This document shows positions 5,326 through 42,269 of a stretch of 64,000 bases of DNA, in pieces. This stretch comes from Schmidtea nova (lineage: Eukaryota). Where the stretch lies: the NCBI GenBank assembly GCA_044892505.1, contig CM097883.1:349680001-349744000 (forward strand), given 5' to 3'. The notes below the pieces were generated by a model. The model had not been told where the DNA came from. It searched no databases and saw nothing but the letters and a program-made list of their open reading frames with translations. Positions within the stretch are counted from its first letter, which is position 1, and each line of letters begins with the position of its first letter. Both the position numbers and the translations under genes were made by a program.

Positions 5326-5668
5326 CACACTGTACCGGAAGGGCCATCTAAACTTTAAAAAACGACCCCTAAATGGATTGCGTTTTTTAATAGTACTATA
5401 GGCACAGATGTTGAAACAGTATATCTACAAAATCCTGATTGAGCTATTTAGGAGCAATTGACGAAAATCTGTAAAATGAGATTGAAGCAAAACTATTTAA
5501 ACCGTACGCAGATTTTTTTCACATGAAAACATGAGAACAATGACATGAGCCATCCATGTAATATGTACACTTTATTGTTGACTTATCAGATGCACAGTTC
5601 GTTAAACACAACGGGGTATAGATGGAGATGGACTGGAAGGTAATTATAATGTAATGGCATCATAGCAG

Positions 5669-7180: not shown

Positions 7181-7230
7181 TGAAGTTGCGTTCTTCTATC
7201 TGTAGATACACACAATTCTACAATGTTCTT

Positions 7231-7722
7231 TCATAAAGCCTGTACCGTACACTTATGAGGAATGCCCCTCCCATAACGAGTCCGACATGCACTGCACACC
7301 GTCATGATTTTTTCCGGTGGGCCACAGGCTGTACTTTCGTCTTTTCGTGGGCGACCCTTCTTTGCCTTTGACATTGACTTCCCAGATTGCCTTGCTGTTT
7401 CGCAAATTTGACACTCGCAAACTGGAATCGGGTCTGATCTAGTTGTTGTAGTATATGGCGCTATCACACGGAAATCAAAAGGTGTCGGTAATACGCTGGT
7501 AGACTTCTTTCCGTCAATAATGTCTAGCAAATTAGAGCGACACCTGCTGCACATTCCACATGGTAAATTTTGTTTTGTCATCTCGTAAGTTGGCATAAAG
7601 TAACGACGAATTCTTGCTAACACGACATCTGTGATATTACAGTTTGATTGGTTGAAGCAAATAAGGCATACTTTCTTCCTGTTTTCTTCATGATTCAATG
7701 CACGGGTTTCATGAAATGGCAT
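7231..7722 (-). CDS. Chapaev transposase N-terminal exon (Chapa zinc finger, AT-hook)
   Basis: HEENRKKVCLICF...LPCGMCSRCR...CECQIC Cys/His pattern and KKGRPRK. Preceded by an acceptor-like TTTTCAG on the minus strand. Confidence 0.75.
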   Translation of the reverse strand: MPFHETRALNHEENRKKVCLICFNQSNCNITDVVLARIRRYFMPTYEMTKQNLPCGMCSRCRSNLLDIIDGKKSTSVLPTPFDFRVIAPYTTTTRSDPIPVCECQICETARQSGKSMSKAKKGRPRKDESTACGPPEKIMTVCSACRTRYGRGIPHKCTVQAL

Positions 7723-8015
7723 CTGAAAAGAAAATTTTAGCGTTACATTTTTAGAATACTAAACATGAATATCATATTTGAAAAAAAAACATTGCACTAA
7801 TAAAGTAACTTTTACAAAATACCTACTTAAAAATGAAATAAAATATGACACTCAATCTTACCACCGTATTTTTGTAATAATGACTTGTAGATCACACCAC
7901 CGCGCAAACTTGAACTTTAAAACAAACGAATAGTTTACTACTTAATACCAAATAATATTATTATATTCTGACATTGAAACATATTAAATGTGTCGCCGTC
8001 TAAAACTACAGAAAA

Positions 8016-8203
8016 NNNNNNNNNNNNNNNNNNNNNNNNNNNNNNNNNNNNNNNNNNNNNNNNNNNNNNNNNNNNNNNNNNNNNNNNNNNNNNNNNNNNN
8101 NNNNNNNNNNNNNNNNNNNNNNNNNNNNNNNNNNNNNNNNNNNNNNNNNNNNNNNNNNNNNNNNNNNNNNNNNNNNNNNNNNNNNNNNNNNNNNNNNNNN
8201 NNN
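8016..8203. other. Assembly gap (N run)
   Basis: Run of N bases. Confidence 1.
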
Positions 8204-8401
8204 ATTAACTTAAAACTATAACGTTCTATGCTTTACTCCTAAATAGCTCAATCAGGATTTTGTAGATATACTGTTTCAACATCTGTGCCTATAGTACTAT
8301 TAAAAAACGCAATCCATTTAGGGGTCGTTTTTTTAAAGTTTAGATGGCCCTTCCGGTACAGTGTGCTCCCCTATCGTTTGATTCAGTCGCAATTGGGTAT
8401 A

Positions 8402-11366: not shown

Positions 11367-11708
11367 TTACTAATTTAATTAATTAGATTAATTTTATTAA
11401 TAATAATAATTGATTAAGTTATAATATTTAATTGTTATTAAATTAATTAAATAAAAAAAATTTAGTGATAAATTATTAATAAAGAATAATTTTTATTAAA
11501 TTATTATAAAAAAATATCTTTAAAATTAAAATTAATAAATAGTAAATAAATAAATTAAAAATTAATTATAAATTGAAATTAATTAAATTTATCAACTTAA
11601 TTTTAAAATTTTTATAAATTAACTTATTACCAGTGTTGAAGTTATAAAGATAAAAATCCTAGACATAGACGGAATTTTTAAATTAGAACAATTTGAGTCA
11701 CATTATTT

Positions 11709-11710
<2 letters not shown>

Positions 11711-11768
<58 letters not shown>
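11711..11768. repeat. (AT)n microsatellite
   Basis: Direct inspection. Confidence 0.97.
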
Positions 11769-11772
<4 letters not shown>

Positions 11773-11774
11773 AT

Positions 11775-12331
11775 GTATATAATTTAAACAAAACCCAAAA
11801 TAGCGATAAAACTATAAAATAGCGCTTTTAATTTGAATAAATATTTACTTTATTTAAACAAAACACAAAATAATGAAAACTTCGAAAATAGCGCTTTCAA
11901 TTTAAATGAATATTTACTTTAGTTAAAGAAATACAAAACGGCTAACAATTATATTAAAAATAGCGCTTTAAATTTAAATAAATATTTACTTAATTTAAAC
12001 AAAACACAAAATGGCGATAAAACTATAAAATTGCGCTTTTAATTTAAATAAATATTTACTTAATTTAAACAAAACACAAAATGGCGATAAAACTATAAAA
12101 TTGCGCTTTTAATTTAAATAAATATTTACTTTATTTAAACAAAACACAAAATGGCGATAAAACTATAAAAATAGCGCTTTTAAATTTAAATAAATATTTA
12201 CTTTATATAAACAAAATACAAAATGGCGATAAAACTCTAATGGTAGCGCTTTTAATTTGAATAAATATTTACTTTATATAAACAAAATGGCGATAAAACT
12301 ATAAAAATAGCGCTTTTAATTTGAATAAATA
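11775..12331. repeat. AT-rich minisatellite (~60-65-bp unit), left part
   Basis: Tandem TTTACTTTATTTAAACAAAACACAAAATGGCGATAAAACTATAAAAATAGCGCTTTT... units. The array resumes at 29453. Confidence 0.9.
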
Positions 12332-12872
12332 TGTTGGATTCATGGAAGGTTTAATAAAAATTCTAATGATTGCTAGGGATCTCCCATCCATGATCATGCA
12401 TAAATAGTCGTAAGTTACACTCGAGCGCCCTTGATTATTTCCCTTGATAACCAAGTTGGTGATGCACAGGGTGGCTAAACAATGAGGGGCAGGTGAGCAC
12501 TATTGCTAGGACTACTCCCCCTTTATGTTTACGGGTTCACGCGGCCGTAGAAGGACTTACGCAATTGTTGTTATTCGGTGTACGTGTGATTTTATGTATT
12601 TATCATTAATCGCAAAAAAAAAAACAAAAACGAAACTACTAATTCGATAATATTTAACTTTTCAACGCTACTCCCTTTGTTGTGTGACATGTGATTTAAA
12701 TTTAATTATTATGAATTGTGTAACCGAAGGAAATACATAGGAAATAACAAAAAAAAACAAACAAGCAAAAGTTTAATAAACACAAAAATCTGATATCATG
12801 TTATGATTTTATTTGCTACAAAATTTCCTTGAAAATTCCTTCGGGAGGGAATATCTCTGATAACCACTCGGC

Positions 12873-13406: not shown

Positions 13407-13926
13407 GCTAAATGATAAACCTAGTTTATGATGCTGAAATTATACTACCCACGGCTAATACTATCCGCCGAGTGGAAAAATTTGGATAATTAAATTAATA
13501 AATGGATCGAAATTCAACTAATAACAAACAAAAAAAAAGATCAACACCATTTAATTGATGAAAACATATTAATTCATAGTAGTGTGAATAACATTGTCAG
13601 CGAAAACGCTTCGCTTGGAGGCCGTGAACGGGGGTAATGTGCAACCCGTGATTGACTGGATCTCGTCGGATGTGAGCCATTGAGCAGTTCAGTTTGGGGC
13701 GTCCTTGGCCCGTTTTTGGTAGGCGATTCGGGATCAACCCAAATTGAAGCAGCTTGTGAGGTGAGATATATCCCCAATGGATTACTGTTGTTGGATTTCC
13801 GGCGATGTCCGTTAAAACTATAATGAACTGAGTTGTCGTTTCGGGGTCTCCTTCGTCCGGAATTTCCCATCCGGGGCCTCCTTCGTTCGGAATTTCCCAT
13901 CCGGGGCCTCCTCGATATATGACAGT

Positions 13927-15067
13927 TGTTGAGGTTCCAAATATTTGCTATTTGCAATCTCAACTTGTTATTGGGGTGATTCTTATATAAATATCAAAAG
14001 CAAAGTTTGTTTTTCAAAATTTTATTAATACAATAAAATTACTTTTTATTTCGTTTACAATTGTCTACGAATAACTCAAATTCTTTATTACACAAATTTA
14101 AAAAGAAAAAGTCGTATCAAATCAATTCTTGCAATTGAACCTATTGGGTGACTGTTATGTAGTGCGTGCTATATTTAATTGTGGATCCAATGTTTCTGAT
14201 CCGGGTTTTAATAAGTTTTTCAAGATTGCCTTGAAAACTCAATTTGCGCTAATTTTAAATCTTGATTTTACACTAGATTTTAAAGCTAGGATTTTTTTGG
14301 GCCCCTTTACTGATTTTTTCTTTAGTTTATATAGTAAAATTTGGTATGGATAAATAATTTAATTTCCGGTCTGATATTAAAATATTATTAAATTTAGTTT
14401 TCAATTTATTCTATACTCTGCGATTAAAATAATTATATTTCAATTTCCGTTCTTGTCGTGATATTAAAATTTTCAATTTATTCTATACTCTGCGATATAA
14501 TTATATTTTAATTTCCGGTCTTGTCACGATATCAAAATTTCCAAATTATTTCGTATTCTGTGATATTAAAATATTATTTAGATTTGATTATTTTTAAACA
14601 ACTGAATTAAATTATTTTATTTATTGATCTGTTTGTTTTATATGTATATACAACTCATAAAATAATAAAAGGAATAAAATACACATCAAGATACACATCA
14701 AGATAAAAGGAATAAAATACACATCAAGATACACATCAAGATAAAAGGAATAAAATACACATCAAGATATATTAAAAGAAAACAAATGTTTGTTGAGAAA
14801 TGTCACAATAATAAAATGTCACAATCATATTAATTTTCTTGATTTCTGTGATGGGAGTTGCAATCTTTGTTGAGAAATGTCACAATAATAAAATGTCACA
14901 ATCATATTAATTTTCTTGATGGGAGTTGCAATCTTTGTTGTGTGGCTTGGATTGGGATTCTGTGTATTGGGATTCCGCGTAAATGTTGATCCTATAGCTG
15001 TTAGGCCCTGTCCTATAATATTTATTTAGGACAAATGCTTGGATGGGCTTCCCTCGATCATCCAACA
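13927..15067 (-). repeat. 3' LTR of element D
   Basis: TGTTGAGG...CATCCAACA; identical to 26731-27871 wherever spot-checked. Confidence 0.95.
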
Positions 15068-16877
15068 TTCCTCCCAGGGCCGTCAAGGTAATGTCCTCAT
15101 TACCTTTTTCACTCAGGACCATTTCAATTTCTTTATCCTTTAATTTCATTATTGTTCTCTTGAATCCTTTCTTGATTGCCAGATTTAGGGTATCATCTTC
15201 CTCAATTCGTCTTCCGAAATGGGTACATAATTGTTTTTCCGTTATCTCTTTTTGGTCGGCACTTATAATGAAGCTAGGTTCTTCCTCCTCTTCTATTTCC
15301 ATTTCAATGTCTGGTTCTGGTCCTAATTCGTCTTCTGCTTTTATTTTACTCTCCATTTCTTTTGTGAAGTCTTCTTCGTCGTCTTCCTCAACTGAAAAAT
15401 ACTCTTCGTCCGAATCTAAATCGCATATGTCTTCTCTTTCTTTGTATTTTTGTATTAGTTGCGGTTCGTTTTTGATCATTATTTGATTTTCTGGTGGTCC
15501 TTCTTCTTTTGTAATCATTAGGTCGTCATCACCATCTTCATGTATTGTTTCTTCCATATCTGAATTTTCATCCATTATTATACTTTCTTCTTCGCTTTCC
15601 TTCAACTCTTCCATACATGATTTTCTGTTTTGCATCTGGTATAGGTCTCCTTTCATTTCGATATCGTCTGTTATTGGTGTATCACTTTGTAACGATGTTG
15701 AATCTGCTGAATTCCATTTTATTATAGGTTCCCATTTGTCTTCTACTATTCCATATATTACCTTTAATATTGTTGTTGTCTTTCTGGCAGAAAATGGCTC
15801 ACTTTCTACTAATGCTTCATTCAGTCTCTTATCTTTGTACCATCTCTTATGGTATTTAATCACTTGGTAAGCTAAGTTAGATAGCTTAATTTTGAGTGGA
15901 TCCACGTTTTTCACGAATGAGCACATAAATTTATCTCCGGCCATTTCTCTCATTCCTGCAATGTTGTCTAGACCAAATGTTAGCATTTTTAATTTATCTA
16001 TCATATCAAATCCTATGATTATTTTTCCCCACAACAGCTCTCTAATATCCCATAGCGCCTGGTACTCATCTTCATTTCCGACGATACTTTCTTTATTAAC
16101 CATTGTTTTTTCTGTGCAGAAGTTTTTTATTTTCGTTCTTGGGGTTATCTTTTTGTTGTATATAATTTCACCGTTGTATTTTCTTATACATACTTCTACT
16201 GGTCGCTTGTTGTCATTTTTATCAATTGCAAATTTTGCATCCATGAATATAATTAGTTGGTGTCTCTCTTCTGTGGATAATTCATTGTGTGTGAAAGAGA
16301 TTTTTTCATTTATCCAGCTTTGATCGTACCAAGGTTTTGAAGGGATTGGCGGCATTGATTGGAATGGATTTGATATCAGAGGGATATAGAGTATCTCGAT
16401 TCCTATGACACACGGTAAGTTGTTCATTTGGATTATGAGGTGATTAAAATCGTCTGGCATACTTCTGTTGTTTGTAATTGTTTTGATGATGATTGAACAA
16501 TTACTTGTTGTGATTATTGGTACTTTATGTTGGCAAATTGATACCTCGGTTTTTGTCATGTGGAATAGGATTCTATGTGGTACCTTTTTTCCTTCGATTA
16601 CCGCTTTGTCGACATTAAGATGTTTTTCAAATGTGCCGATTAGGTCTTTTAATTTTGTTCGTCGAGCTTCATTAAATTTGATAATGTGTAGTTCTCTTTC
16701 TTCAATTTCCACTTTCATATCATTTGGGATGCATACTTGGTTTGGGAAGCTTCTGATTGTGATTGGATTTCCATCGGTACATATTTTGTTTTGTAGGGTT
16801 TTGTAAAAGTTTAGAGGGTGTTTGTTGATCATAGCCACATAGTTCATAGATCGAGAATAATTTGGCTCTGATTGCAT
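14907..16877 (-). CDS. Accessory ORF (~656 aa from MQSEPNY): DEDDh/REX4-ISG20-like exonuclease fold and acidic tail, ending inside the 3' LTR
   Basis: IIFMDAKFA...PVEVCIRKYNGEIIYNKKITP...NFCTEKTMV...RELLWGKIIIGFD follows the REX4/ISG20 pattern. The last ~53 codons lie in the LTR. Confidence 0.72.
   Translation of the reverse strand: MQSEPNYSRSMNYVAMINKHPLNFYKTLQNKICTDGNPITIRSFPNQVCIPNDMKVEIEERELHIIKFNEARRTKLKDLIGTFEKHLNVDKAVIEGKKVPHRILFHMTKTEVSICQHKVPIITTSNCSIIIKTITNNRSMPDDFNHLIIQMNNLPCVIGIEILYIPLISNPFQSMPPIPSKPWYDQSWINEKISFTHNELSTEERHQLIIFMDAKFAIDKNDNKRPVEVCIRKYNGEIIYNKKITPRTKIKNFCTEKTMVNKESIVGNEDEYQALWDIRELLWGKIIIGFDMIDKLKMLTFGLDNIAGMREMAGDKFMCSFVKNVDPLKIKLSNLAYQVIKYHKRWYKDKRLNEALVESEPFSARKTTTILKVIYGIVEDKWEPIIKWNSADSTSLQSDTPITDDIEMKGDLYQMQNRKSCMEELKESEEESIIMDENSDMEETIHEDGDDDLMITKEEGPPENQIMIKNEPQLIQKYKEREDICDLDSDEEYFSVEEDDEEDFTKEMESKIKAEDELGPEPDIEMEIEEEEEPSFIISADQKEITEKQLCTHFGRRIEEDDTLNLAIKKGFKRTIMKLKDKEIEMVLSEKGNEDITLTALGGMLDDRGKPIQAFVLNKYYRTGPNSYRINIYAESQYTESQSKPHNKDCNSHQEN
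15068..15080 (-). promoter_or_regulatory. Putative polypurine tract
   Basis: ...CTGGGAGGAA directly abuts the 3' LTR on the minus strand. Confidence 0.55.
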
Positions 16878-17301
16878 TGTTAATTGAAGATACAAGAATC
16901 GGGATATTGATTGACAATAAAACACTAAGAATCGGGATATCGACTGATAAGTTAGTAAACGATAAAACACTAAGAATCGGGATATCGACTGATAAGTTAG
17001 TAAACGATAAAACACTAAGAATATAGATTGATAATGAGATCGAGATATGATTTTACGACTTGATTTGTGATTGGATTGAAAATTGGAACGATTTGATTGG
17101 GAGTTGGTTTGATTGTTTTGATTGTGCTGAGGATTTGATGTAAAACTGGCTTTATTGGATTGTTTGCCAAATGGGTGACTTGTTTTTCTAAAAATAAAAT
17201 GTAAATTTTTATGTTGAGAGCGTATTTCAGGTTTAACCTTATACGCTCTTTTATAGATACAGATATATGTGATTTTAATATATATTATTGACCAATTTAA
17301 C

Positions 17302-19302
17302 TTATACCAATGTAGACCTCGAATATTCACCTGGTATATATTTACCCAAATGGAAATGCCCTGGTACATTTCTGACCAGTTGGCTCCGATACCGCTGCCT
17401 TTTCCATTTGTACTTTTTATAAACTTGTACGCTAGTTATTAAAGCTAAAACTGCTAATGCTATTATTGATGTTGTGATGACATAAAAAGGCCAATGTGGA
17501 TTTTTATCTTTTTTACGAAATGCTTGTAGTTCCTCTAAGTTATGTATCACTATTGGTCTTCCTTGCCTTATTTTGATAGGTTCTTGTTTTTGTTTTTTGG
17601 CATTGTATTGTTTTTGGAGTTTGGCTATTCCAGTTCTTGTTGGTGTTTCGTTTGTATGTAGTGTGGTATTTAGTCTATTATTTGATGTCGTTGTTGTGCT
17701 TTTTGTTATGTTTTGGTTTTTTATTATATCCTTGGGTAATTGTTCTGTTTTTATCTCTTTGCATCTCCATGTTGTTGTATCTGTGTTTCTCTGTATGCAG
17801 ATTTTATATATTGTATTAGGTGTTAGTTTTGTGAAATTAATATAGTTTCCTCTTTCAATTTCGTTGGTTGTTCTGTCGTCCTTTCCTTTTATCATCTTTG
17901 GGTTTTTTCCATTCGTTGTTTGCATGTATAAATCAATTACTCCTCTATTTATGATAAATGCTCTAACTTCGTTTGTTGATATTTTTATTAATACTCTGTC
18001 AAATTCTATTGTTTCGGTTGAGCCAACAATTGTTATGATTGTTAAGAAGATAGCTGATATTATTAGTTTGTTATGAGATCTTAGATTATACTTGTGAGGT
18101 TTATCTATCGTGACCTCGGCTTCCGCCAACTTGCATCTGTTGACATGTACTACTATTGGATCCTCGTTTTTATGCTTTTGTAAATGTAAATTCTCATTTA
18201 TTACTTTTACTACTTCATATGGACCTTTATATGGTCTTGCTAATTTTGTTGTCTTTCCCTTTCCTACTTGTGGTGACATAAGTCTAACCTTATCACCTAC
18301 CTTAAAGTTGTGTGGTTTACTATTTTTGTCGTAGTCGGCTTTGTATTGTTCTTGTCTATATTTGACTTTTAGATTGGCTACTTTATACACTTCTTGCAGT
18401 TTTTCCTGCATTAGTGTGACATAATCTGGTGCATCCAAATATTGTGATACTCGAGGTTCAAATATTGTATCTATTGGTGTTGCTGGTTCTCTTAAAAACA
18501 TTAAATAATACGGCGAATACCCTGTTGTTTCGTTTGGAGTGATATTATGAATGTATGTGCATTGACTTATGTATTCGTCCCAATCATTTTGATTTTTTCC
18601 TACAAAAACAGCTAGTCTGCTTAGTAATGTCCCATTAAATCTTTTTACTAGTCCATCAGTTTGAGGGTGATACGCTGTTGTGTTGATCTTTTGCATGTTA
18701 AAAATATTAGCTACTCGTTTTATTAATTCACTAGTAAAATTTGTTCCTTTATCTGTTAATAATCTTTTGGGTGTGCCTATCTTGAAAATAATTTTTTCTA
18801 TAAGCAATTTAGCAACTGTTTCTGCTGTTTCGTCTTTTGTTGGAAATGCTTCTGCCCATCTAGTAAAATAATCACTAAATACTAGTATATGTTTATTCCC
18901 ATTAATTGTAGTAGGTAATTTACATAGAAAATCCATTGCACATAGTTCCATTGGTGATGTTGTTGCTGGAATGGGGTGTAACGGCGCTTTTGTTTTTGTA
19001 CCTGTATTTTTTCTTGTTGCACATATTGTACACGCGTTACACCATCTCTTAACATCTTTCTTTAGTTCTTCCCAGTAATATTTTTGTAATAATCTACTTG
19101 CTGTCTTTCTAGATGATAAGTGACCTCCTAATGCTCCATCGTGATATTGTAGTAGGAGTATTTGTCTTAATTTCTGAGGTACTACTATTAATTGCTTACC
19201 GTTGAAATCTTCTATTACTACTAATTTCTTTGATATTTTATATTTTGAATTGTTTTCTTTTCTGATTTCATTCCTTATTCTATTGATCTCTGGGTCTTTC
19301 AT
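17302..19302 (-). CDS. Integrase (HHCC, DD-K, GPY) fused to a predicted type I membrane protein
   Basis: HDGALGGH...CNAC; MDF; TDKG; GLVKRFN; KGPY. Then hydrophobic LIISAIFLTIITIVG, FN3-like LTPNTIYKICI, a Thr-rich stalk, and TM FYVITTSIIALAVLALITSV with a basic tail. Confidence 0.9.
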   Translation of the reverse strand: MKDPEINRIRNEIRKENNSKYKISKKLVVIEDFNGKQLIVVPQKLRQILLLQYHDGALGGHLSSRKTASRLLQKYYWEELKKDVKRWCNACTICATRKNTGTKTKAPLHPIPATTSPMELCAMDFLCKLPTTINGNKHILVFSDYFTRWAEAFPTKDETAETVAKLLIEKIIFKIGTPKRLLTDKGTNFTSELIKRVANIFNMQKINTTAYHPQTDGLVKRFNGTLLSRLAVFVGKNQNDWDEYISQCTYIHNITPNETTGYSPYYLMFLREPATPIDTIFEPRVSQYLDAPDYVTLMQEKLQEVYKVANLKVKYRQEQYKADYDKNSKPHNFKVGDKVRLMSPQVGKGKTTKLARPYKGPYEVVKVINENLHLQKHKNEDPIVVHVNRCKLAEAEVTIDKPHKYNLRSHNKLIISAIFLTIITIVGSTETIEFDRVLIKISTNEVRAFIINRGVIDLYMQTTNGKNPKMIKGKDDRTTNEIERGNYINFTKLTPNTIYKICIQRNTDTTTWRCKEIKTEQLPKDIIKNQNITKSTTTTSNNRLNTTLHTNETPTRTGIAKLQKQYNAKKQKQEPIKIRQGRPIVIHNLEELQAFRKKDKNPHWPFYVITTSIIALAVLALITSVQVYKKYKWKRQRYRSQLVRNVPGHFHLGKYIPGEYSRSTLV

Positions 19303-19362
19303 CTGTTCCTCATATATATCTATTGGCTTTTCTGCTACTAGTGCAAATATTTCAAGTGCTCC

Positions 19363-22300
19363 TTATTCTGGTATTCTTGATAGTGCATCTGCGTTTTTAT
19401 TTATTCTACCTTGTTTATATATAATTTTTAGGTGCATGTCTTGTATTTTCATTGCCCATTTAAGTAATCTACTTGATGTATCTTTATGTTTCCATAAGCC
19501 TTCTAATGGTTTATGGTCTGTTCTTATTATCACTTCAGTTCCGTAGATGTATGGTTTGAATTGTTTTAGGGCAAATACTATTGCGTAACATTCTTTTTCT
19601 ATTGTTGAATACCTCAGCTGTGCTCCTTTTAATGTTTTACTGGCATATGCTATTACGTAATCTTTCCCTTTCTCTTCTTCTTGGCCTAATACTGCTCCTA
19701 CGGCTTTCCCGCTGGCATCCGTCATTACTATAAATTGGTTTTCGAAATTTGGGTATCTTAACACTGGTGCTGTTATCAATCTTTCTTTTAGTTTGTCGAA
19801 TGCTTCTTGATGTTCTTTTGTCCATTTCTTTTGTATCTTGTTAACTTTATTGTTAATTTCTTGTACTATTAACACGTCTTTGCATTCTCCTTTTGTTTTA
19901 ATTCCCTTTGTTAGTTCTATTATAGGTGTTGCTATCTTTGCATAATCTTGTATGAATTTACGATAGTATCCTGTTAAGCCTAAAAACCCTTGTACTTGTT
20001 GTACTGTTTTTGGTATTGGGAATTTCTTTACAACTTCTATTTTTTCTGGATTTGGTTTTATCCCTTCTACTGTGACTATATGCCCTAAAAATAGTGCCGA
20101 AGACTCTGCCCATTTACATTTGGTTGGTTTAATTTTTATCCTTGCTTTTCTTAGTCTCTCAAGTACGTTTGTTATATCTTTTAGATGTTCCTCGAATGTC
20201 TTTGATGATATTAATATGTCATCCATGTAAACTGCGCAATGTTGTACATTTACTAATATTGTGTTCATTAGACGTTGAAATGTAGCTGGCGCATTAGTTA
20301 ATCCGAAGGGTAATCGTGTGTACTCATATAAACCATGCTCAATAACAAATGCTGTTTTTTCTGCATCCCCTTCTTCCATTTGAATTTGCATATACCCCTT
20401 ATTCGCATCAATGACTGAAAAATACTTAGCATCCCTAAGTTTATCATATTGCTCTTGTGCTTTTGGGAATGGATATGAATCTTTTACTGTTACATCATTT
20501 AATTTACGATAGTCAATGCACATTCTTATTTCTCCGTCTTTCTTTTTGACGGGTACAATGGGTGATGCCCACTGTGAAAAACTTTGTTTTATTACACCTG
20601 CGTCTTTTAATTCTTTAATTTGTCGCTTTATCTCCTCTCTTAGTTTGTATGGTACGCTATATGGTCTTTGTTTTATTGGTCTTGCATTGCCCGTATCTAT
20701 TACATGTTTGATTATGTCAGTATCTCCTAAATCAAATTCATGTTTTGCAAAAACATCGCTGTATTCATCTATTAGTGTCTGTAATTGTGCTTGTTGTGTT
20801 ATTGTTAGGTATTTATTATTGATTTTCACTTTGTCGTATGATTTTATACTATTTGTCTTACTAGGTTCGACTACTCCATTGCCGTTATTATTCATCACGC
20901 TTATCTCACTGACTTCGTATGTTTTTTCTAATTCACCTTTGAATAATTTTCCCAATTTCGTACCTTTGTGTATTTTAACATTACTTTTTTCATAATTTGC
21001 TATTCTCAATGGTATTATTCCCTTTCTCGGAATTACGCATTCATTGGTTAGCATTATATTCTGATTTTGTATAATTGCCGTTTCTGGCTCAAAAATAAAA
21101 GTGTCCTCACTTTTGATGTTAACTTTTAAGGGAATTATATGATCGCATTCATATTCCAATTCAAATGCTTCTAATACAACAACTTCTGTGAACTTGGATT
21201 TATGTTTAATTGCTTTTCTCTTTATCGTATTATCTGTTAAATCTATAATGCAATTTTCTAACTTGTTGAGTATATCGATTCCCAATATACATATGCTATT
21301 ACATTCTTGCACCACTTTAAATATGTGGTTTATTACCTGTTCTGGTGTTTCGACTATTAGTTCTATGTCTCCCTTTAGTGGAATACGATGTGCTGATAAC
21401 GATACTACTTTATCCGTTGTGCTCATAATATTTCTTTTTTGATCATCTGTCAGTTGATCTTCTCTAATTAAGGATGTTGCTGCTCCTGTGTCTACTAATG
21501 CATTTATGATTATATTGTTTATAATTATTCTAAGTCTTGGTCTTGCTTCGTTTGCTGCATCTAATCGTTCCATTGTTTCGACTTCTAAGCTATAACAACC
21601 ATATATCTTTTTAGGTTCACAATGACAATTCTTGTTTTCTCTAGGAATTTTGATTTCTATATTTTCTTGTAGCTCTTTTAGTTGTTCTCGTTGGTTTTCA
21701 TATAGTCCTTGTTGTGGTACATTTCCTTCATGTGATATATGCGCTTTAATTATTTCCTCATCGTTTTCATCATCTACCAGTAATTGCCTTTCTTCATTCC
21801 TTTGGACTTTTATTAAACGTATTTCCTTGTCGTGTTTCGCCGTAATAAGATATTTAGCTATAAATGGGCACAAACATGCTAATAATTTATATGAATTTCC
21901 AAATACTTGTTTTAGCTGTCTCAGTGATACTAGAGAAGAACATATCATTTTTAGTAATGCAACCGTATAATATAAACCTAAGATTGTAGAAAACATGTTT
22001 CCAAGGACTGCAAAGTATCCCCATATGCTATATAGTACTTTATATGCTACTTTTTTGAAGTATTCTTTTGATAATAACACATCAAAGTTGTAATTTCCTC
22101 CGTAACTTCCTTCGATAACTCTGTTAACCATTATTGAAAGTACTCTTTCTTTTTCGTTTGGAAATAGCATGTGTTTTCTTGCACTTTCTATAGCTTCTCT
22201 CGTATATATGCCATTACTGTCCATATCGTTGATTTCTTTAAACTCTAATCTTTTTTCTAGCTCTATGAGTTCTAATTTGAGTGGTTTCATTGCCTCCTTT

Positions 22301-23283
22301 CTATCTGACATAGATATCCACATTTCGTCATTTATTTTGTATAATGGGTCTAATAGGTTAGTGCATTTTTCTATTTTTCTCGGTATATATGTTTTTTCTG
22401 TTAATATTCTAGTAATTGGTTGAAGGTATACCCTTTCTCCTTTATATATTACCGGTAATTCATTAGTGCACTGATTATTTGTTGCTAACGATACACTAAC
22501 AGGTTTACATTGAAATGTCTGTATCACTTCTCCTACTATCCTTGCAAATGTTCCTTCTTCTGAGAAGATAATTGGTGCCATTAAATCTGGGTTTGTTACC
22601 GCCACTGCCATTTTTGTCTTCAATATTTCTCTGTTGAGTTTGCAATCGCTCATAATTGTTGATTGATATACTTTATCTAATTGTACTAGTTGGTTATGAT
22701 AGAAAAAATCGATTTTATTGTTGAAGTATGATGCAAGTTTGACGTCGAATTTATTTACTTTTTGTTTTGCATCTTTGACTTCTTCTTTGCTTATGTATAT
22801 CCCTTCATAATTAGTTTGTATTATTTCCTTACCACATTTTACACTTTTCCTTTTACTAACAAACCTCATTGCTTCGTTTTCAGATTCTGACATATATATT
22901 GTTGGTGTATCTTTTTCTTGTACAATTGTTGTTTTCCTTTTTTGATCTCTCACCCTTTTTGAGTCTACTTCTGTGAACTGTTTTCCTTTGATTTCCCTAA
23001 ATTTTAATGATTTTAATTTTGTTAACTGACAATCATATTTATCTATTTTGTATATTAGCATTGATTCTCCTGTATCGCAATAAGATTCTTCTAATGTACA
23101 AAATTTGTATATCATCATTTTCTTTGAGCTGCTGTCGAATGATGCTTTGAACTTTCTCAGTTCTACCATGTAGTGTCTCCTTACTACAACATTACTCAGT
23201 TTTTCGCCCCATATTGTATATTCTCCTCCTTCACAATATCCTCCTTTTGATGCCCATCCCACGACATTTACATCTTGTCTCAT
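19363..23283 (-). CDS. pol: Chuvirus-like glycoprotein ectodomain and TM fused in frame to protease, RT and RNase H
   Basis: GYCEGGEY...VVVRRHY; GEVIQTFQCKPV...CTNELPV...YLQPITRIL; TM at ~21870-22040; LVDTGA (PR); SPIVPVKKKDG..RMCIDYRKLN and YMDD (RT); TDAS/EKEC/TDH/DALSR (RH). Confidence 0.92.
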   Translation of the reverse strand: MRQDVNVVGWASKGGYCEGGEYTIWGEKLSNVVVRRHYMVELRKFKASFDSSSKKMMIYKFCTLEESYCDTGESMLIYKIDKYDCQLTKLKSLKFREIKGKQFTEVDSKRVRDQKRKTTIVQEKDTPTIYMSESENEAMRFVSKRKSVKCGKEIIQTNYEGIYISKEEVKDAKQKVNKFDVKLASYFNNKIDFFYHNQLVQLDKVYQSTIMSDCKLNREILKTKMAVAVTNPDLMAPIIFSEEGTFARIVGEVIQTFQCKPVSVSLATNNQCTNELPVIYKGERVYLQPITRILTEKTYIPRKIEKCTNLLDPLYKINDEMWISMSDRKEAMKPLKLELIELEKRLEFKEINDMDSNGIYTREAIESARKHMLFPNEKERVLSIMVNRVIEGSYGGNYNFDVLLSKEYFKKVAYKVLYSIWGYFAVLGNMFSTILGLYYTVALLKMICSSLVSLRQLKQVFGNSYKLLACLCPFIAKYLITAKHDKEIRLIKVQRNEERQLLVDDENDEEIIKAHISHEGNVPQQGLYENQREQLKELQENIEIKIPRENKNCHCEPKKIYGCYSLEVETMERLDAANEARPRLRIIINNIIINALVDTGAATSLIREDQLTDDQKRNIMSTTDKVVSLSAHRIPLKGDIELIVETPEQVINHIFKVVQECNSICILGIDILNKLENCIIDLTDNTIKRKAIKHKSKFTEVVVLEAFELEYECDHIIPLKVNIKSEDTFIFEPETAIIQNQNIMLTNECVIPRKGIIPLRIANYEKSNVKIHKGTKLGKLFKGELEKTYEVSEISVMNNNGNGVVEPSKTNSIKSYDKVKINNKYLTITQQAQLQTLIDEYSDVFAKHEFDLGDTDIIKHVIDTGNARPIKQRPYSVPYKLREEIKRQIKELKDAGVIKQSFSQWASPIVPVKKKDGEIRMCIDYRKLNDVTVKDSYPFPKAQEQYDKLRDAKYFSVIDANKGYMQIQMEEGDAEKTAFVIEHGLYEYTRLPFGLTNAPATFQRLMNTILVNVQHCAVYMDDILISSKTFEEHLKDITNVLERLRKARIKIKPTKCKWAESSALFLGHIVTVEGIKPNPEKIEVVKKFPIPKTVQQVQGFLGLTGYYRKFIQDYAKIATPIIELTKGIKTKGECKDVLIVQEINNKVNKIQKKWTKEHQEAFDKLKERLITAPVLRYPNFENQFIVMTDASGKAVGAVLGQEEEKGKDYVIAYASKTLKGAQLRYSTIEKECYAIVFALKQFKPYIYGTEVIIRTDHKPLEGLWKHKDTSSRLLKWAMKIQDMHLKIIYKQGRINKNADALSRIPE

Positions 23284-23406
23284 TTTTGCCCCTATCCTTG
23301 CTTCTAATTCTATTCCTTTATGACCGCTATATTTTACTTTTTTTGTTTTAAATGCATCTTCACACTATTGGTGACAATATTACTGCTTCGGGTGTCCACG
23401 TAGGTT

Positions 23407-26064
23407 TTAACACTGTTCTTGCCCCAACATGACATATATATATGCTTCCTCCTGATACTTTACTATGCACTCTTTGGCCTCTGTATGAATAAAGTCTGAT
23501 TCTTGATAAACATGGAATATTTGAGGCTCTGACATGATTAATTTAGTTGGATTTGCTTCAGGGCAATTTTCAACATCTAACAGTGAGTATTTTTGTCCCC
23601 ACTTTGGATTTTGACAATCATATGCTACCATTGCATTGCCTCCCTTGATTAAATCTAATAACAAAGTGATAATGACTATTACTATGGAGGTTATCGATTT
23701 ACTCTCTGTCTTTGGTTTTACTGTTGCTTTCTTTATTAATTGTTTTATTACCTCATCTGTATCACTCTCTTTATTCGTCGTATCTTTATCATATAATACT
23801 TTCCATCCTCCTTTCTTTTTTATCCATGGTATTGCCTCTACTTTCAATCTTTTAAACATCATTGTTGCTACTTTTTCTAATTGCTCTTTTGGATTTTCCT
23901 TTATGAGCTTTTTATATCTTGCGGCCAAGTATGCCATGGCCGTTATTATTTTATCTTTATCTATCCCTGTATTAAACATGATTTTTAACACTGTTTTTTC
24001 ATTTGCTTCCTCTGTAACTAGTTCTTTAGTATCCTTTTTAATTAACATCATCCTTTCAGTTATATTTTCAATAAGTACTGTTGGCTTTGTTTCTGGAAAT
24101 AGCTTAATATTCATTGCTTTTATTACTTCTTTTATTTTGTTTACGTCATTATTATCGTCTTGATACTCTGGTTGTTCATGTTTATGTTGATTTGCAATCT
24201 CTCTTAATCGTTCTGCTGTCTTCCTATTCTCCGATTTTTCTATTATTTCTGATTTTCGAGGTCTTCCTCTACCTCGTTTTGATGTTTCTGCATCTTTTGT
24301 TTTTGCTTCCTCAGCTATTCTTTCTATTGTTTCTTGTAAGTTACTATACTTTTCATCTATAGGTTTAAATATAATTTCTTCATCCATTACTGATTTCTTT
24401 GTTTCGCTAGGTGATTTATCCCATAGCCTAAATAATCTATCAAAATCGTTTTCTTCATTTATACTCAACTCAACCGACGGTACTGGCGTCATTATTTCAT
24501 TGATCATTTGTTTTTCTACTGTGGCTACCACAATATTATCACTTACTGGGTTTATCCCATAATCGATTAAGTACTCGTCACTTAATAATTCTATTCCGTT
24601 AAAATATAATTTTATTACATCTTTCTCTCCTATGGTTCCTGGCCATTTGGCTCTTACCATTCGTTTTAATTTGCTCACTTTAGTGCAAGTATGCATCTTT
24701 TGTTTAATACTAAAAAAATAATTATCATTTGATTCAATCGTTACATTTAGTGTTTCATGCAATTTTTCATTTTTTCTTATATATTCTCCATAACATTTCA
24801 ACATCTCTTTTATTTCTATTTCTAATTCAAATACTCTCGTTACATTTTGTCTCTTTACCATCATTGGTATTAAATTTCTAAGTCTCTCTAAATCAATCCC
24901 ATTAACCTGTATTTTATTGATTACTCTTAATGTTTCATTGTCATCAAACGGTTGCTTATGCAATACCTCTTTAAATTCCTCTATTAATTCTTTTTGTCTA
25001 TTTTCTTCTGTAAGAAATATTTCATCTGCTTTTCTAATTTCCTTTAACTCATCATTATCAATATCTACTTCATTTGTAAAGGTGCTAAATTCATTTATAG
25101 ACATTTCAAGTTTTCTCTCAATAAGTCTTCCATATTGAGTTTTAAATTCTTTTAGTTCCTCTCTTAATATATTTATTTCTTTATTTGCTGATTCGAGCTC
25201 AGCACTATTTACTTGTTTTATCTCAGGCTCATTTTTAAATCTTACTCTTATTGGTGAATCTGCTCGTGGTTTATTACATACCTTTGCTAGGTGGCCATAC
25301 TTTTGGCAATTATAACATTTTATTTGTCCATTAAAATTCACTTTATCTCTACCATCATTATTATAAGTATTTCGCCTCACTGGGCTATCTTGCCTATTTC
25401 TCGAATTATCTCTATATCTATTATCTCTTCTATTATATTCGAAGCGACTATCTCTATTATTTTTATTATATCCACTGTAACTGTTTCTGTTATAACCAGA
25501 ACGACTATCTCTAAAATTATCGAAATTTTTATTTCCTGGACTATTAAACCTTCCCCTGTTTTCAGGTGATTGGCTTCTATTAGGACTAAATTTTCTTCTA
25601 TTATTAACAAAATTCAAGTATAATTGTTTCATTTCTTCCCAGGGAATACTATCATCCTTATTTCTCAACTCAGGTTTTACCTCGGGTTGTTTTTCAACTT
25701 CTACAGCATCTACCTCTGGTTTAAATCTATCTCTTTGTATTGCTTCGATACGTTTTGCCTTTTGAACTAACTCATTTAAGTCTTCATACTCAATTGTAAT
25801 TAATGCTTTGTATAAATATTTTTGGATGCCGTTCCAAAACTGATCCTCAATAAATTTACTAGTGTGATCTCCGGCACCAAATGCCTTTTTTGCTAATTCT
25901 GTTATCGTGTATATATATTCACCTACTGATTCTCTGGCTCCTTGGTATCTACTTCTAAATTTTTGAACATTTATTTTTTGTAAGTCTCGATCTATTACTA
26001 TTTCTTTTCTAAGGTTTGTAACCAACTCTTGATAATTAATACCGGCATCAATCTCCGGCACCAA
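23407..26064 (-). CDS. gag: Gag continuation with CCHC knuckle, ubiquitin-like domain, AT-hook, Bcl-2-like domain, signal peptide and glycoprotein N-terminus
   Basis: CYNCQKYGHLAKVC; KVSKLKRMV...KLYFNGIELLSDEYLIDYGI; KRGRGRPRK; IMFNTGIDKDKIITAM...WIKKKGGW; hydrophobic ITSIVIVIITLLLDL followed by AYDC...SLLDVENC. Confidence 0.85.
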   Translation of the reverse strand: MVPEIDAGINYQELVTNLRKEIVIDRDLQKINVQKFRSRYQGARESVGEYIYTITELAKKAFGAGDHTSKFIEDQFWNGIQKYLYKALITIEYEDLNELVQKAKRIEAIQRDRFKPEVDAVEVEKQPEVKPELRNKDDSIPWEEMKQLYLNFVNNRRKFSPNRSQSPENRGRFNSPGNKNFDNFRDSRSGYNRNSYSGYNKNNRDSRFEYNRRDNRYRDNSRNRQDSPVRRNTYNNDGRDKVNFNGQIKCYNCQKYGHLAKVCNKPRADSPIRVRFKNEPEIKQVNSAELESANKEINILREELKEFKTQYGRLIERKLEMSINEFSTFTNEVDIDNDELKEIRKADEIFLTEENRQKELIEEFKEVLHKQPFDDNETLRVINKIQVNGIDLERLRNLIPMMVKRQNVTRVFELEIEIKEMLKCYGEYIRKNEKLHETLNVTIESNDNYFFSIKQKMHTCTKVSKLKRMVRAKWPGTIGEKDVIKLYFNGIELLSDEYLIDYGINPVSDNIVVATVEKQMINEIMTPVPSVELSINEENDFDRLFRLWDKSPSETKKSVMDEEIIFKPIDEKYSNLQETIERIAEEAKTKDAETSKRGRGRPRKSEIIEKSENRKTAERLREIANQHKHEQPEYQDDNNDVNKIKEVIKAMNIKLFPETKPTVLIENITERMMLIKKDTKELVTEEANEKTVLKIMFNTGIDKDKIITAMAYLAARYKKLIKENPKEQLEKVATMMFKRLKVEAIPWIKKKGGWKVLYDKDTTNKESDTDEVIKQLIKKATVKPKTESKSITSIVIVIITLLLDLIKGGNAMVAYDCQNPKWGQKYSLLDVENCPEANPTKLIMSEPQIFHVYQESDFIHTEAKECIVKYQEEAYIYVMLGQEQC

Positions 26065-26512
26065 ATGCCTTTTTTGCTAATTCTGTTATCGTGTATATAT
26101 ATTCACCTACTGATTCTCTGGCTCCTTGGTATCTACTTCTAAATTTTTGAACATTTATTTTTTGTAAGTCTCGATCTATTACTATTTCTTTTCTAAGGTT
26201 TGTAACCAACTCTTGATAATTAATACCTTTACATGCTAAATTATTGTATGCCTGTAATGCGTATCCCTTTAAGTATAATGGGATTCGTTGTTTTAATTCA
26301 TTTGTTTTCCATCCGCAAGCCTCTGCATACTGTGTGATTTCGGCAAAAAGGTCGTCGAACTTTTCAGGGTCTCCCTTATATGATTCTATTGGTAATGTTT
26401 TTATAAAATTATGGCTTCTTATGTTGTCTGTATTACTGTTACTTCCACTATTGCTGCTGCCTGTACTATTATTACTCATTTTGTATATTATCTTTTTTCT
26501 CAACTTGTGCAA
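26048..26512 (-). CDS. gag: Gag N-terminus, truncated by an internal tandem duplication
   Basis: IESYKGDPEKF...AEACGW...IPLYLKGYALQAY resembles a retrotransposon gag core. First ORF after the PBS. Confidence 0.8.
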   Translation of the reverse strand: MHKLRKKIIYKMSNNSTGSSNSGSNSNTDNIRSHNFIKTLPIESYKGDPEKFDDLFAEITQYAEACGWKTNELKQRIPLYLKGYALQAYNNLACKGINYQELVTNLRKEIVIDRDLQKINVQKFRSRYQGARESVGEYIYTITELAKKAFGAGD

Positions 26513-26710
26513 TATTTCAGGTGGCTTATCTATAATGACTTTCTTTATCTTTTTACCTATTTTGTTATTGTTAACCTTAAATGTTTGTATATCTTTGAAT
26601 TTCTGTTTTGGTCAATAATATTTAGATAAATATATTTTCCCGATATATATATTACAATATCCCTCTGATCGCAATTCCTATCCCCCAATTGATATTATAA
26701 TATTTTATGG

Positions 26711-26728
26711 TCCCGGTTCGCGGCACCA
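26711..26728 (-). promoter_or_regulatory. Primer-binding site (tRNA-Phe-like 3' end; tRNA-His not excluded)
   Basis: TGGTGCCGCGAACCGGGA lies 2 nt inside the 5' LTR. Its complement UCCCGGUUCGCGGCACCA resembles the metazoan tRNA-Phe 3' end. Confidence 0.8.
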
Positions 26729-26730
26729 AA

Positions 26731-27871
26731 TGTTGAGGTTCCAAATATTTGCTATTTGCAATCTCAACTTGTTATTGGGGTGATTCTTATATAAATATCA
26801 AAAGCAAAGTTTGTTTTTCAAAATTTTATTAATACAATAAAATTACTTTTTATTTCGTTTACAATTGTCTACGAATAACTCAAATTCTTTATTACACAAA
26901 TTTAAAAAGAAAAAGTCGTATCAAATCAATTCTTGCAATTGAACCTATTGGGTGACTGTTATGTAGTGCGTGCTATATTTAATTGTGGATCCAATGTTTC
27001 TGATCCGGGTTTTAATAAGTTTTTCAAGATTGCCTTGAAAACTCAATTTGCGCTAATTTTAAATCTTGATTTTACACTAGATTTTAAAGCTAGGATTTTT
27101 TTGGGCCCCTTTACTGATTTTTTCTTTAGTTTATATAGTAAAATTTGGTATGGATAAATAATTTAATTTCCGGTCTGATATTAAAATATTATTAAATTTA
27201 GTTTTCAATTTATTCTATACTCTGCGATTAAAATAATTATATTTCAATTTCCGTTCTTGTCGTGATATTAAAATTTTCAATTTATTCTATACTCTGCGAT
27301 ATAATTATATTTTAATTTCCGGTCTTGTCACGATATCAAAATTTCCAAATTATTTCGTATTCTGTGATATTAAAATATTATTTAGATTTGATTATTTTTA
27401 AACAACTGAATTAAATTATTTTATTTATTGATCTGTTTGTTTTATATGTATATACAACTCATAAAATAATAAAAGGAATAAAATACACATCAAGATACAC
27501 ATCAAGATAAAAGGAATAAAATACACATCAAGATACACATCAAGATAAAAGGAATAAAATACACATCAAGATATATTAAAAGAAAACAAATGTTTGTTGA
27601 GAAATGTCACAATAATAAAATGTCACAATCATATTAATTTTCTTGATTTCTGTGATGGGAGTTGCAATCTTTGTTGAGAAATGTCACAATAATAAAATGT
27701 CACAATCATATTAATTTTCTTGATGGGAGTTGCAATCTTTGTTGTGTGGCTTGGATTGGGATTCTGTGTATTGGGATTCCGCGTAAATGTTGATCCTATA
27801 GCTGTTAGGCCCTGTCCTATAATATTTATTTAGGACAAATGCTTGGATGGGCTTCCCTCGATCATCCAACA
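26731..27871 (-). repeat. 5' LTR of element D
   Basis: Direct repeat of 13927-15067, adjacent to the PBS. Confidence 0.95.
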
Positions 27872-29452
27872 CAGTGTCTGATCCACCGGTCCAAATTGAA
27901 AATGGACATTTTTTCCCCAGTTCTCGTCTCCACTTGTACATCAACGCATTTAGCGTTCTGAGGAGCTCTTGTGGAAGCGATTTCAATCTCTTCTGCTGCG
28001 TCCGGATCGGCTGGTCATCAGCCTGGGCCGCACGTCGTTGGATCGCCAAAAATTCCTCCACTTTTGTTTGTTTCATCTGAGATAAGAATGATTCCAATAA
28101 AAATTAATGTGACAAATTCGCTAATCGTAGTGAAATCCGATGAAGTATGCTCCCCTCGTTGATGAAAAAAATATATATATTGATAAATTTTAATTCAAGG
28201 ATTCATTGGTCTTGCCGTGAGGAGATTGATCATTTAAAACCCCCAAAAAAATGAAGAGAAGGAATGAGAAAAATTTTCTAAAACTATTAACTTAACACCG
28301 TCGCTATATACAGCGATCGGGATACGTTTATAAGAAATCTAAATATTATTGCCTGCGCTATTTACAGCGATCAGGTTACTGTTTTATTTATCCAATCTGT
28401 GATTTAAATTCGATTATGTTACTATTTATACCCTAGTCAGAATTTCACTATACTATCGGAATCTCCTCGGTGTGTCCGGATGCATCTATTTGTCTAGATC
28501 AGCTGCAGTTGTGTGGATTCGACATAACGTACATAAGGTGAAACCGATTTAGTTGATTTGTTAAGTTATATAATCAATGATATTTTAATTACTCTTGGAC
28601 ATCTCCTGTTTGATCGAACGCTACCTAACCAACACTAGACCCTGTTTGCAAGCACAACCCTGGCCCATGCACAATTCTACTTTAAGGTAAACCTCTGATA
28701 GCACTCAATTAAATAAAATAAAACTGTCAATAGAGACTTCGCTCACCATCTTGTGGAACGGTGAAATCCCACACTTACGGCTTACTCCCTCGCAGCGTGA
28801 GCTACTGAGGAAGTGTATTTATTATAAAATAATGAAATAAGAAAAATAAACCAAATCATTAATAATAAACTATATTAAAATAAAATCAAATGGGAATCAT
28901 GAGAAACATGTAATAAAAAAAATTTTAATAACAATAAAAACAAAATTACTCTCTAAGATCCGATTTTGATGCGTTCCCAAAAATTATTTCGAAAATTTAT
29001 CGTAATAAAGTTGATGTGACTGAATCGATTGTTATAGATCAGTTCGGTAATCAAAATTTTTATGTCTGTTTTTATGATTTTTGGATCGGTATTGACCAAT
29101 CAGGATCAGGCCATCCATCAAAGTAATTTTGTTATTTTATTTTAATATAAACCATTTTAAATTTCCGGTTCAGGTTTCTCGCTGGGTGGTCCTGATTTTT
29201 CAAGTAATTAACTAATTAATTGTACTCTTATTTGATTTTATTTGTAATTTTCTTATTTCAGACCCCCATGCTGCTCGTTCCCGTGTCAATTTGATTTTTT
29301 TCCTTTGCTGGAAATTTAGTTATTATTATTTATTATTTTATTTTTATTTTTAATTTAGGTTTTTCCAATGTTTTTTGTATTTATTATTTGTATTTTTTGT
29401 TTAAATTATTACATTATTCTTGTCTTTTTTATACCATTTGGTGTGCCCAACA

Positions 29453-29760
29453 AAAATTTACTTTATTTAAACAAAACACAAAATGGCGATAAAACTATAA
29501 ATTAGCGCTTTTAATTTGAATAAATATTTACTTTATTTAAACAAAACACAAAATGGCGATAAAACTATAAAATAGCGCTTTTAAATTTAAATAAATATTT
29601 ACTTAATTTAAACAAAACACAAAATGGCGATAAAACTCTAAAAGTAGCACTTTTAAATTTATATAAATATTTACTTTATTTAAACAAAATATAAAATGGC
29701 GTAAACTTCGAAAATAGTGCTTTAAATTTAAATGAATATTTACTATAGTTAAAGAAAAAT
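29453..29760. repeat. Right part of the AT-rich minisatellite split by LTR A
   Basis: Same unit as 11775-12331, resuming in register. Confidence 0.9.
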
Positions 29761-42178: not shown

Positions 42179-42269
42179 TTCTACAATAATATATACATTC
42201 GACTTGTTGTTTATTTTTGATTTTTCTTGTTTTTATTTTTACATATTTAAAATTTTCCGCTTTATTTAT

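Follow-up and report, generated by a model that had tools for sequence, protein, structure and literature searches.

The locus analysed here raises the question of how a viral-type glycoprotein came to lie inside an LTR retrotransposon, between gag and protease, and what use the element makes of it. The original prediction had read the protein as a chuvirus-like glycoprotein captured independently by a Ty3/gypsy element at an unusual position, and took this to suggest infectious particles. The window, by which we mean the whole 64,000-nucleotide stretch of Schmidtea nova DNA that was analysed, contains a Ty3/gypsy element of 13.9 kb (13,927-27,871, minus strand). Its termini and its gag and enzyme regions are as follows.

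27,872-27,875 and 13,923-13,926: target-site duplication CAGT, 4 bp, flanking the LTRs
26,731-27,871, minus strand: 5' LTR, 1,141 bp, TG...CA, 100% identical to the 3' LTR (0 mismatches)
26,711-26,728, minus strand: primer-binding site (PBS), complementary to the 3' end of tRNA-Phe(GAA)
25,276-26,479, minus strand: gag, with a capsid-like region and one CCHC knuckle (25,317-25,276), from Pfam
19,438-21,549, minus strand: protease (DTG at 21,498), reverse transcriptase (RT; YMDD at 20,229) and RNase H
18,130-19,182, minus strand: integrase, with H2C2, core and SH3-like end, from Pfam
15,068-15,075, minus strand: short polypurine tract (PPT), from the sequence, adjoining the 3' LTR
13,927-15,067, minus strand: 3' LTR, 1,141 bp, from sequence comparison with the 5' LTR

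The Pfam domains in the window follow the order RVP, RVT_1, RT_RNaseH, Integrase_H2C2, rve, which is the gypsy-type order PR-RT-RH-IN. This order, together with the LTRs, the duplication, the PBS and the PPT, identifies the backbone as Ty3/gypsy (Metaviridae). A BEL/Pao backbone was considered and rejected, since Pao domains were absent and gypsy-type domains present in the Pfam analysis. The gag region of the window gave a weak match to Retrotrans_gag (E 0.06) and a zf-CCHC match at the cut-off; Retrotrans_gag lies above the Pfam cut-off in the sister families described below. Between gag and protease the same strand encodes the following parts.

24,150-25,275, minus strand: about 370 polyprotein residues without a domain call, weakly conserved (about 24%) in sister families
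23,803-23,997, minus strand: Bcl-2-like domain, BH1-BH2 part (Pfam Bcl-2, 27 bits, E 7e-6, below the cut-off of 31.4)
23,638-23,694, minus strand: hydrophobic segment, likely the internal signal peptide of Env (KD19 2.12)
22,009-23,637, minus strand: predicted Env ectodomain, class III (gB/chuvirus-like), from Pfam and a structure model
21,928-22,008, minus strand: hydrophobic transmembrane (TM) anchor of Env, followed by a tail or linker of about 125 residues in the protease frame

Every motif in the series that had been claimed was located on the minus strand of this region: AYDC at 23,625, YSLLDVENC at 23,589, GYCEG at 23,241, GEVIQTFQCKPV at 22,533, CTNELPV at 22,470, LQPITRIL at 22,425 and PLYKI at 22,347. 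A CCHC knuckle lies upstream, and the retropepsin DTG (21,498), RT, RNase H and integrase lie downstream; the glycoprotein therefore sits between gag and protease, as had been proposed. The complete order of parts is gag, the 370 or so uncalled residues, Bcl-2-like domain, hydrophobic segment, Env, TM segment, PR-RT-RH-IN, hydrophobic segment, fibronectin type III (FN3)-like domain, stalk, TM segment and basic tail, after which comes a second open reading frame, ORF2. The polyprotein thus holds four hydrophobic segments, two of them signal-like and two TM. The Bcl-2-like domain has lost the NWGR motif of BH1. Of its 56 weak matches to PDB sequences, 55 belong to the Bcl-2 family, nearly all of them Bcl-xL/Bcl-2 (best E 0.02), and the domain occurs at the equivalent place in the sister families and in the database protein P0003.

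We examined the identity of Env by profile and by structure. The Pfam family PF24664 (Monjiviricetes_fusion) matched the window from 23,364 downward with 255 bits (E 1.3e-75, cut-off 27) and an unbroken copy with E 9e-86, and had no match in any of 14 control genomes. An AlphaFold monomer model was built from an unbroken natural sister copy with a 13-row alignment; its mean pLDDT was 61 and its pTM 0.45, with 216 of 540 residues below pLDDT 50 and TM-scores of 0.2-0.46. In a Foldseek search with this model all 40 PDB rows listed were herpesvirus gB (best E 1e-10, TM-scores about 0.28, identity 10-13%), and the best rows in BFVD were chu-like, qin-related and xinmovirus glycoproteins (E 8e-30 to 7e-24, identity 16-21%). 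The first 14 VIA-align rows were all class III fusogens, from gB, thogotovirus, rhabdovirus and baculovirus GP64 (Z 9.2 to 4.2, rmsd 23 A). With moderate confidence and a high rmsd, the monomer model matches the gB-like multi-domain fold with its long central helix. By sequence alone, the ectodomain had no match among PDB chains at E<=1 and none among 50,697 phage records, and a metagenome scan confirmed one of 92 candidate stretches, a broken match of 32%. From profile and model together, Env is a predicted class III fusogen of the Monjiviricetes type, with chu-like G proteins as its nearest viral relatives. The original prediction had named the lack of any significant profile or structural match to a viral fusion glycoprotein as the outcome that would speak against it; significant matches of both kinds were found (PF24664; gB and chu-like proteins), and this part of the prediction therefore stands.

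Two further features bear on how Env is made. The order of basic residues, hydrophobic segment and AYDC is kept in all four aligned rows, sister families included, and stand-alone relatives begin 20-30 residues ahead of the AYDC-equivalent point; both features are compatible with a retained signal peptide. The ectodomain of the window family lacks both N-glycan sequons and an RxxR site, which is unusual for a surface glycoprotein; the sister-family ectodomains have one or two sequons. The number of cysteines is 14 in each of three families.

Three lesions interrupt the window copy, one each in gag, env and pol. The gag break is a 184-bp tandem duplication (about 25,867-26,227) whose junction occurs once in the genome, the env break consists of three in-frame stops (23,409, 23,382 and 23,367) within a short out-of-register stretch, and the pol break is a stop at 19,363-19,365, after RNase H and before integrase. 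Both halves of env share one frame with gag and pol. A single env frameshift was rejected on the ground that the halves on both sides lie in the same frame, and a stand-alone env ORF was likewise rejected. Four contig sets, from one study and of unrecorded kind, cover the element; they are silent on expression and on whether the lesions are real or assembly errors. We read the window copy as a recent insertion that is defective and could be mobile only by means of proteins from other copies.

To place this copy within its family, we searched its own genome (1.25 Gb), scoring 80 of 3,632 candidates. Across the env piece each of the 80 scored matches had 99-100% identity; for 26 of them the matched stretch was uninterrupted by stops and belonged to an open frame of 3,054-3,082 codons. 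Among 30 fetched loci, 25 were free of stops from AYDC to the protease; the window copy and four more had env breaks. In ten long-frame copies, chosen for frame length and examined in halves, the frame ran from gag to the tail, and each had an ORF2 of 548-898 codons. The tail domain had at least 150 matches in the genome (150 scored among 282 candidates). Multiple copies with uninterrupted ORFs are therefore a property of the family and not of the window copy. A profile search also recovered sister families with frames of 3,393-3,401 codons and the same order of parts, in which RT is 52-53% and env 38-41% identical to that of the window family.

Comparison of these copies indicates how env has been maintained. 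Four env pairs were run, and the values within the family are for env. There, the 540 env codons of two subfamily copies differed by 24 synonymous changes and 2 non-synonymous ones (dN/dS 0.019), and a second pair gave 0.020. Between sister families dN/dS was 0.033-0.046 for env, 0.021 for RT and 0.125 for the tail, values that are rough because dS is near saturation. These data demonstrate that env is under purifying selection (dN/dS 0.02-0.05), and thus that Env function matters to the lineages that spread. They also bear on the idea that Env is nothing but a relic, a spacer whose frame stays open for the sake of pol, which is read after it in one frame. An in-frame position does force an open frame whatever the function, and five of the 30 loci do carry env breaks. 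However, an open frame does not explain the excess of synonymous changes or an RT-like dN/dS, which was far below 1 in all four env pairs; the cysteines are also constant, and between sister families the Bcl-2-like domain (46% identity) and tail region (60%) have drifted faster than env (85%). We consider a relic spacer extremely improbable.

If Env is maintained, its origin can be sought among its relatives. A HMMER search over 1.84 billion representatives gave 1,061 matches, of which the best 150 were examined. The best 24 of these 150 (28-57% identity) are polyproteins or fragments; a second tier among the matches listed (22-29% identity) consists mostly of stand-alone proteins of about 650 residues, and the first stand-alone full-length glycoprotein among them appears at 26% identity. 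By Pfam, env lies in frame before protease or RT in P0005-P0010, P0013, P0015, P0017 and P0019. We then computed a quick, midpoint-rooted IQ-TREE of 60 rows, with fragments and about 95 other matches set aside. The 18 polyprotein-type envs, four of which (P0001, P0012, P0014 and P0016) are labelled as embedded by similarity and without a visible gag/pol fusion, form one branch (SH-aLRT 99) apart from the 42 stand-alone rows, and nesting of the window env among viral G proteins was not seen in this tree. P0123, a BEL/Pao-type protein with DUF5641 and the fusion domain, groups with the stand-alone rows, across the tree from the window env. Env identity also drops along with RT identity in five polyproteins, the RT/env values being 57/38, 54/40, 51/35, 49/28 and 46/28%.

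The separate polyprotein branch and the parallel fall of env and RT identity point to one old association rather than to capture by this element, and Env has likely come down to this family through an old lineage of elements of this kind. The claim that this element took up a chuvirus glycoprotein recently and independently, and at an unprecedented place, draws on the nearest named viral relatives, which are chuvirus-like: the BFVD rows, and P0031, the glycoprotein of Wufeng shrew chuvirus 2 (26% identity), the only named chuvirus among the 42 stand-alone rows. It is possible that a Monjiviricetes-like virus was the source of one ancient capture. Recent capture is nonetheless very unlikely and largely refuted by the polyprotein character of the best 24 matches, by the distance of the first stand-alone protein among those listed, and by the tracking of RT identity by env; the place itself is in print, a gag-env-pol layout having been published for planarians (PMC6431247, PMC13524379). 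The original prediction is therefore retained for the chuvirus-like class III glycoprotein and for the Ty3/gypsy host element, the latter on the PR-RT-RH-IN order, and is set aside for independent capture and for novelty of position.

Downstream of integrase the element encodes two further products.

17,302-18,063, minus strand: second predicted type I membrane protein, in the polyprotein frame, from hydropathy and a model
18,063-18,007, minus strand: signal-like segment of this protein
about 18,018-17,731, minus strand: predicted FN3-like domain (95-residue)
17,484-17,428, minus strand: TM segment, followed by a basic tail
14,907-17,435, minus strand: ORF2, 842 codons from stop to stop, first likely Met at 16,877, in another frame than the polyprotein

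The stalk between the FN3-like domain and the TM segment is Thr-rich and carries N-glycan sequons. The domain itself models as a beta sandwich (pLDDT 61). FN3 domains dominate its VIA-align list, led by an FN3 domain of Dscam (Z 8.7, rmsd 2.6, 76 aligned), and Foldseek gave FN3-like rows, the best at E 4e-3 and none reaching E 0.001. In the ESM Atlas the whole tail lay near FNDC5/9/10 (0.90 to FNDC5), at a recognition value below threshold. Pfam fn3 did not match the tail domain, nor, among the genome matches listed, any frame of 3,000 codons, and the tail had no significant match among PDB sequences and long proteins. A signal-ectodomain-TM plan after integrase is found in four lineages, namely the window family, the 3,400-codon sister families, P0007 and P0009. 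HH-align probabilities between tails of different lineages were below 1%, and a 4-row tail profile did not recover the sister-family tails. Two tail pairs scored above shuffles, window-P0009 (z 4.7, 0 of 300) and P0007-P0009 (z 4.4, 1 of 300), and seven other cross-lineage comparisons did not. From the model, the tail is a predicted FN3-fold membrane protein that may help particles attach to cells. Its sequence changes more quickly than that of env, which is what one would expect of a receptor-binding protein.

ORF2 encodes an ISG20/ISG20L2-like DEDDh exonuclease domain (profile matches to ISG20L2, E 4e-11, and ISG20, 1e-8) followed by an acidic tail. Its catalytic residues are eroded in the window: it reads DAK and GFD, and lacks the H-x-A-x-x-D block that is kept in all four sister-family rows. 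In the papers searched we found no description of a catalytically eroded ISG20-like ORF2 or of an FN3-like tail in LTR elements; figures, repositories or other papers may contain them.

In polyproteins such as those of flaviviruses, alternating signal and stop-transfer segments thread the chain through the membrane. By analogy, translation in the cytosol would yield Gag and then the Bcl-2-like domain, and the hydrophobic segment would then start translocation of Env into the ER lumen. Judging from hydropathy, host signal peptidase would free the N-terminus of Env just before AYDC. The Env TM segment would return the chain to the cytosol, where PR-RT-RH-IN would stay attached to the Env tail pending cleavage by the protease of the element, and the second signal and TM segments, again on hydropathy, would place the FN3-like domain outside. 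With this alternating topology, Gag, Env and Pol would thus begin on one membrane, an arrangement that would favour budding of enveloped particles; trimers of Env could then fuse these with further cells in the body, which for inheritance would be stem or germ cells. A single frame would give equimolar (1:1:1) output of Gag, Env and Pol, which is awkward for particle assembly and counts against the model.

Our preferred reading, which we hold with reasonable confidence, is that the window contains a recent defective copy whose sisters encode capsid, class III Env and enzymes in one frame, with Env likely an old inheritance and likely used for passage from cell to cell. Given the selection and the intact frames, infectious particles, as originally suggested, are plausible for the family; the window copy is defective. 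Env might instead act within the same cell, with budding into the ER or endosomal lumen and fusion back to the cytosol or nucleus, and no intercellular spread. Purifying selection and an ER-coupled topology would be explained equally well, and the absence of sequons from the window family's ectodomain would fit. We regard such confinement as unlikely, however: extracellular viruses use the relatives of Env to enter cells, the predicted surface protein after integrase is kept, stalk and sequons included, and errantiviruses of Drosophila infect the germline from the soma by means of env (PMC13524379). It could also be proposed that the main role of Env and of the FN3-like protein is a service to the host, or a block to superinfection by receptor interference, while the element itself moves within cells like any ordinary retrotransposon. 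Cargo of the planarian element Burro1 is described as benefiting host stem cells (PMC13465017), and solo chuvirus glycoproteins of mosquitoes have been suggested to act by interference (PMC7642597). Such a role seems barely credible here, as the selection was measured between mobile subfamilies and not at a fixed host locus, and hundreds of copies still have their env joined to gag and pol.

The preferred reading, passage between cells, could be carried further: these may be active invertebrate retroviruses in which one polyprotein yields a gB-like fusogen and a host-derived FN3 attachment protein or receptor mimic, the tail anchor of the Bcl-2-like domain doubles as the Env signal, and Gag and Pol are consequently both made already attached to the membrane from which particles bud. 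We treat this fuller scheme as speculative and rather doubtful. The value of the family lies in its being very young and high in copy number, with intact frames and RT-like constraint on env, in animals for which RNAi and stem-cell tools exist. Intercellular movement of gB-type errantiviruses could become testable with it, and its FN3-like membrane protein is a concrete candidate attachment partner for a lone gB-like fusogen.

Closeness to published Schmidtea elements points to a dugesiid planarian as the probable host. Among the closest published systems are those of Chary and Hayashi (eLife 2026, PMC13524379), who report gB-type GAG-ENV-POL elements in Nematoda, Bryozoa and Platyhelminthes, nine of them in flatworms and not all in one clade, and name the movement of gB-type errantiviruses between cells as an open question. 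Their Smed_errantivirus_3 is likewise a multi-copy Ty3/gypsy element with an HSV/gB-type env between gag and pol. Counted by eye, 129 of 176 residues of env domains I-II (about 73%) are identical to those of the window; the cysteines also align by eye, C1a being the planarian cysteine-bridge configuration of that paper. It differs in being given with three copies and no LTR or tRNA, whereas the window family has at least 150 copies by its tail, LTRs and a tRNA-Phe PBS. The main text of that paper has no mention of polyprotein, Bcl, fibronectin, FN3 or exonuclease, and the last four are absent from its seven supplements; its figures and repository may differ.

Close in architecture is Burro/GYPSM1 (Arkhipova and Yushenova 2019, PMC6431247), whose ORF runs Gag, BCL2-like, env, protease, pol, and whose env, termed there the first in frame between gag and pol, matches mononegavirus fusion proteins. 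The window element shares this in-frame BCL2-env-protease order. Burro is more than 30 kb long, its ORF counts 4,873 aa, and its cargo comprises MATH, BIR, ankyrin, SUMO-like and dUTPase domains (PMC6431247). The window element, in contrast, has 13.9 kb and about 3,070 codons, shows none of these cargo domains by Pfam, and adds the FN3-like membrane protein and the exonuclease-like ORF2. Nematode NERVs reportedly have a continuous gag-env-pro-pol ORF. They are Metaviridae with a flipped env/pol order (Sacco et al. 2022, as cited in PMC13524379), like the window element but in nematode hosts. Pao captures of chuvirus glycoproteins are known (Dezordi et al. 2020, PMC7642597; Dezordi 2023); of these, the BEL/Pao element Anakin (PMC7642597) is an LTR element with the same Pfam fusion family but a Pao backbone. 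The G proteins of Jingchuvirales/Monjiviricetes and herpesvirus gB share with the window Env a class III fold, the signal-ectodomain-TM plan and an AYDC-type start, whereas the window Env is embedded in a polyprotein and is 22-28% identical to the stand-alone proteins and 10-13% to gB. Rotifer LTR elements (Rodriguez et al. 2017, PMC5408684) carry a DEDDy exonuclease as a separate ORF3 after pol, the position of ORF2 here; ORF2 differs in being ISG20/ISG20L2-like and in having lost catalytic residues that its sister families keep. The layout is known, so it will not surprise specialists: the element is a very young relative of Smed_errantivirus_3, built like a compact Burro. Less familiar than the layout is the second membrane protein after integrase, with its predicted FN3 fold.

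The polyprotein of these Ty3/gypsy elements appears, from its sequence, to end in a second signal-ectodomain-TM protein in four lineages. This protein and ORF2, which follows the main frame, occupy the following positions:

17,302-18,063, minus strand: predicted second signal-ectodomain-TM protein, window copy; also at loci L083, L087 and L089 of this genome and in the related database proteins P0007 and P0009
14,907-17,435, minus strand: ORF2, ISG20-like exonuclease, window copy; also at loci L031-L050 and L083-L089

In the window family, as well as in P0007 and P0009, the protein located after the integrase is predicted to be of a fibronectin type III-like (FN3-like) form. The corresponding terminal protein of the sister families is longer and has no detectable similarity to the FN3-like tail, and the P0017 polyprotein carries a long tail of another kind. 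NCBI lists P0007, a polyprotein with complete env and pol, under a Flavobacteriaceae MAG and labels it a hypothetical protein; this record probably represents animal DNA binned with a bacterial genome. Two to four aspartic-protease-like domains are found 3' of env in the related polyproteins P0005, P0009 and P0015.

Based on sequence, the ORF2 exonuclease of the sister families is apparently catalytic and that of the window copy eroded. Element copies with cores 95-98% identical carry three types of ORF2, mutually only about 50% identical, and also differ in their LTRs. This pairing of near-identical cores with different ORF2 types and LTRs points to swapping of an ORF2-LTR module.

The window copy has identical LTRs and contains three disabling lesions, and this coexistence suggests either a defective template mobilized in trans or an assembly error. 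By genome search, the sequence of the env break (23,424-23,454, an AT run) was found at 4 places in the genome, and the junction of the gag duplication (26,031-26,062) nowhere else in the genome. The tRNA-Phe(GAA) genes matching the primer-binding site of the element lie in a 240-bp tandem array at 566.9 Mb (G000:C1, L090); the primer-binding-site pattern has 2,549 matches genome-wide.

Elsewhere in the window, a probable DNA transposon occupies 5,354-8,336: its 104-nt terminal inverted repeats (98%) flank an ORF of 508 codons that weakly matches DUF1280. A hAT-type transposase (61,527-64,000, plus strand; DUF4371 and Dimer_Tnp_hAT) is interrupted by one stop, and a 70-bp AT-rich tandem repeat forms two arrays (11,696-12,332 and 29,379-29,757). 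An intronless TRAF-like gene with a broken frame (40,814-42,232, minus strand), encoding RING, TRAF zinc finger and MATH domains (E 2e-19 for MATH), could be a copy of a host TRAF or Burro-type cargo.
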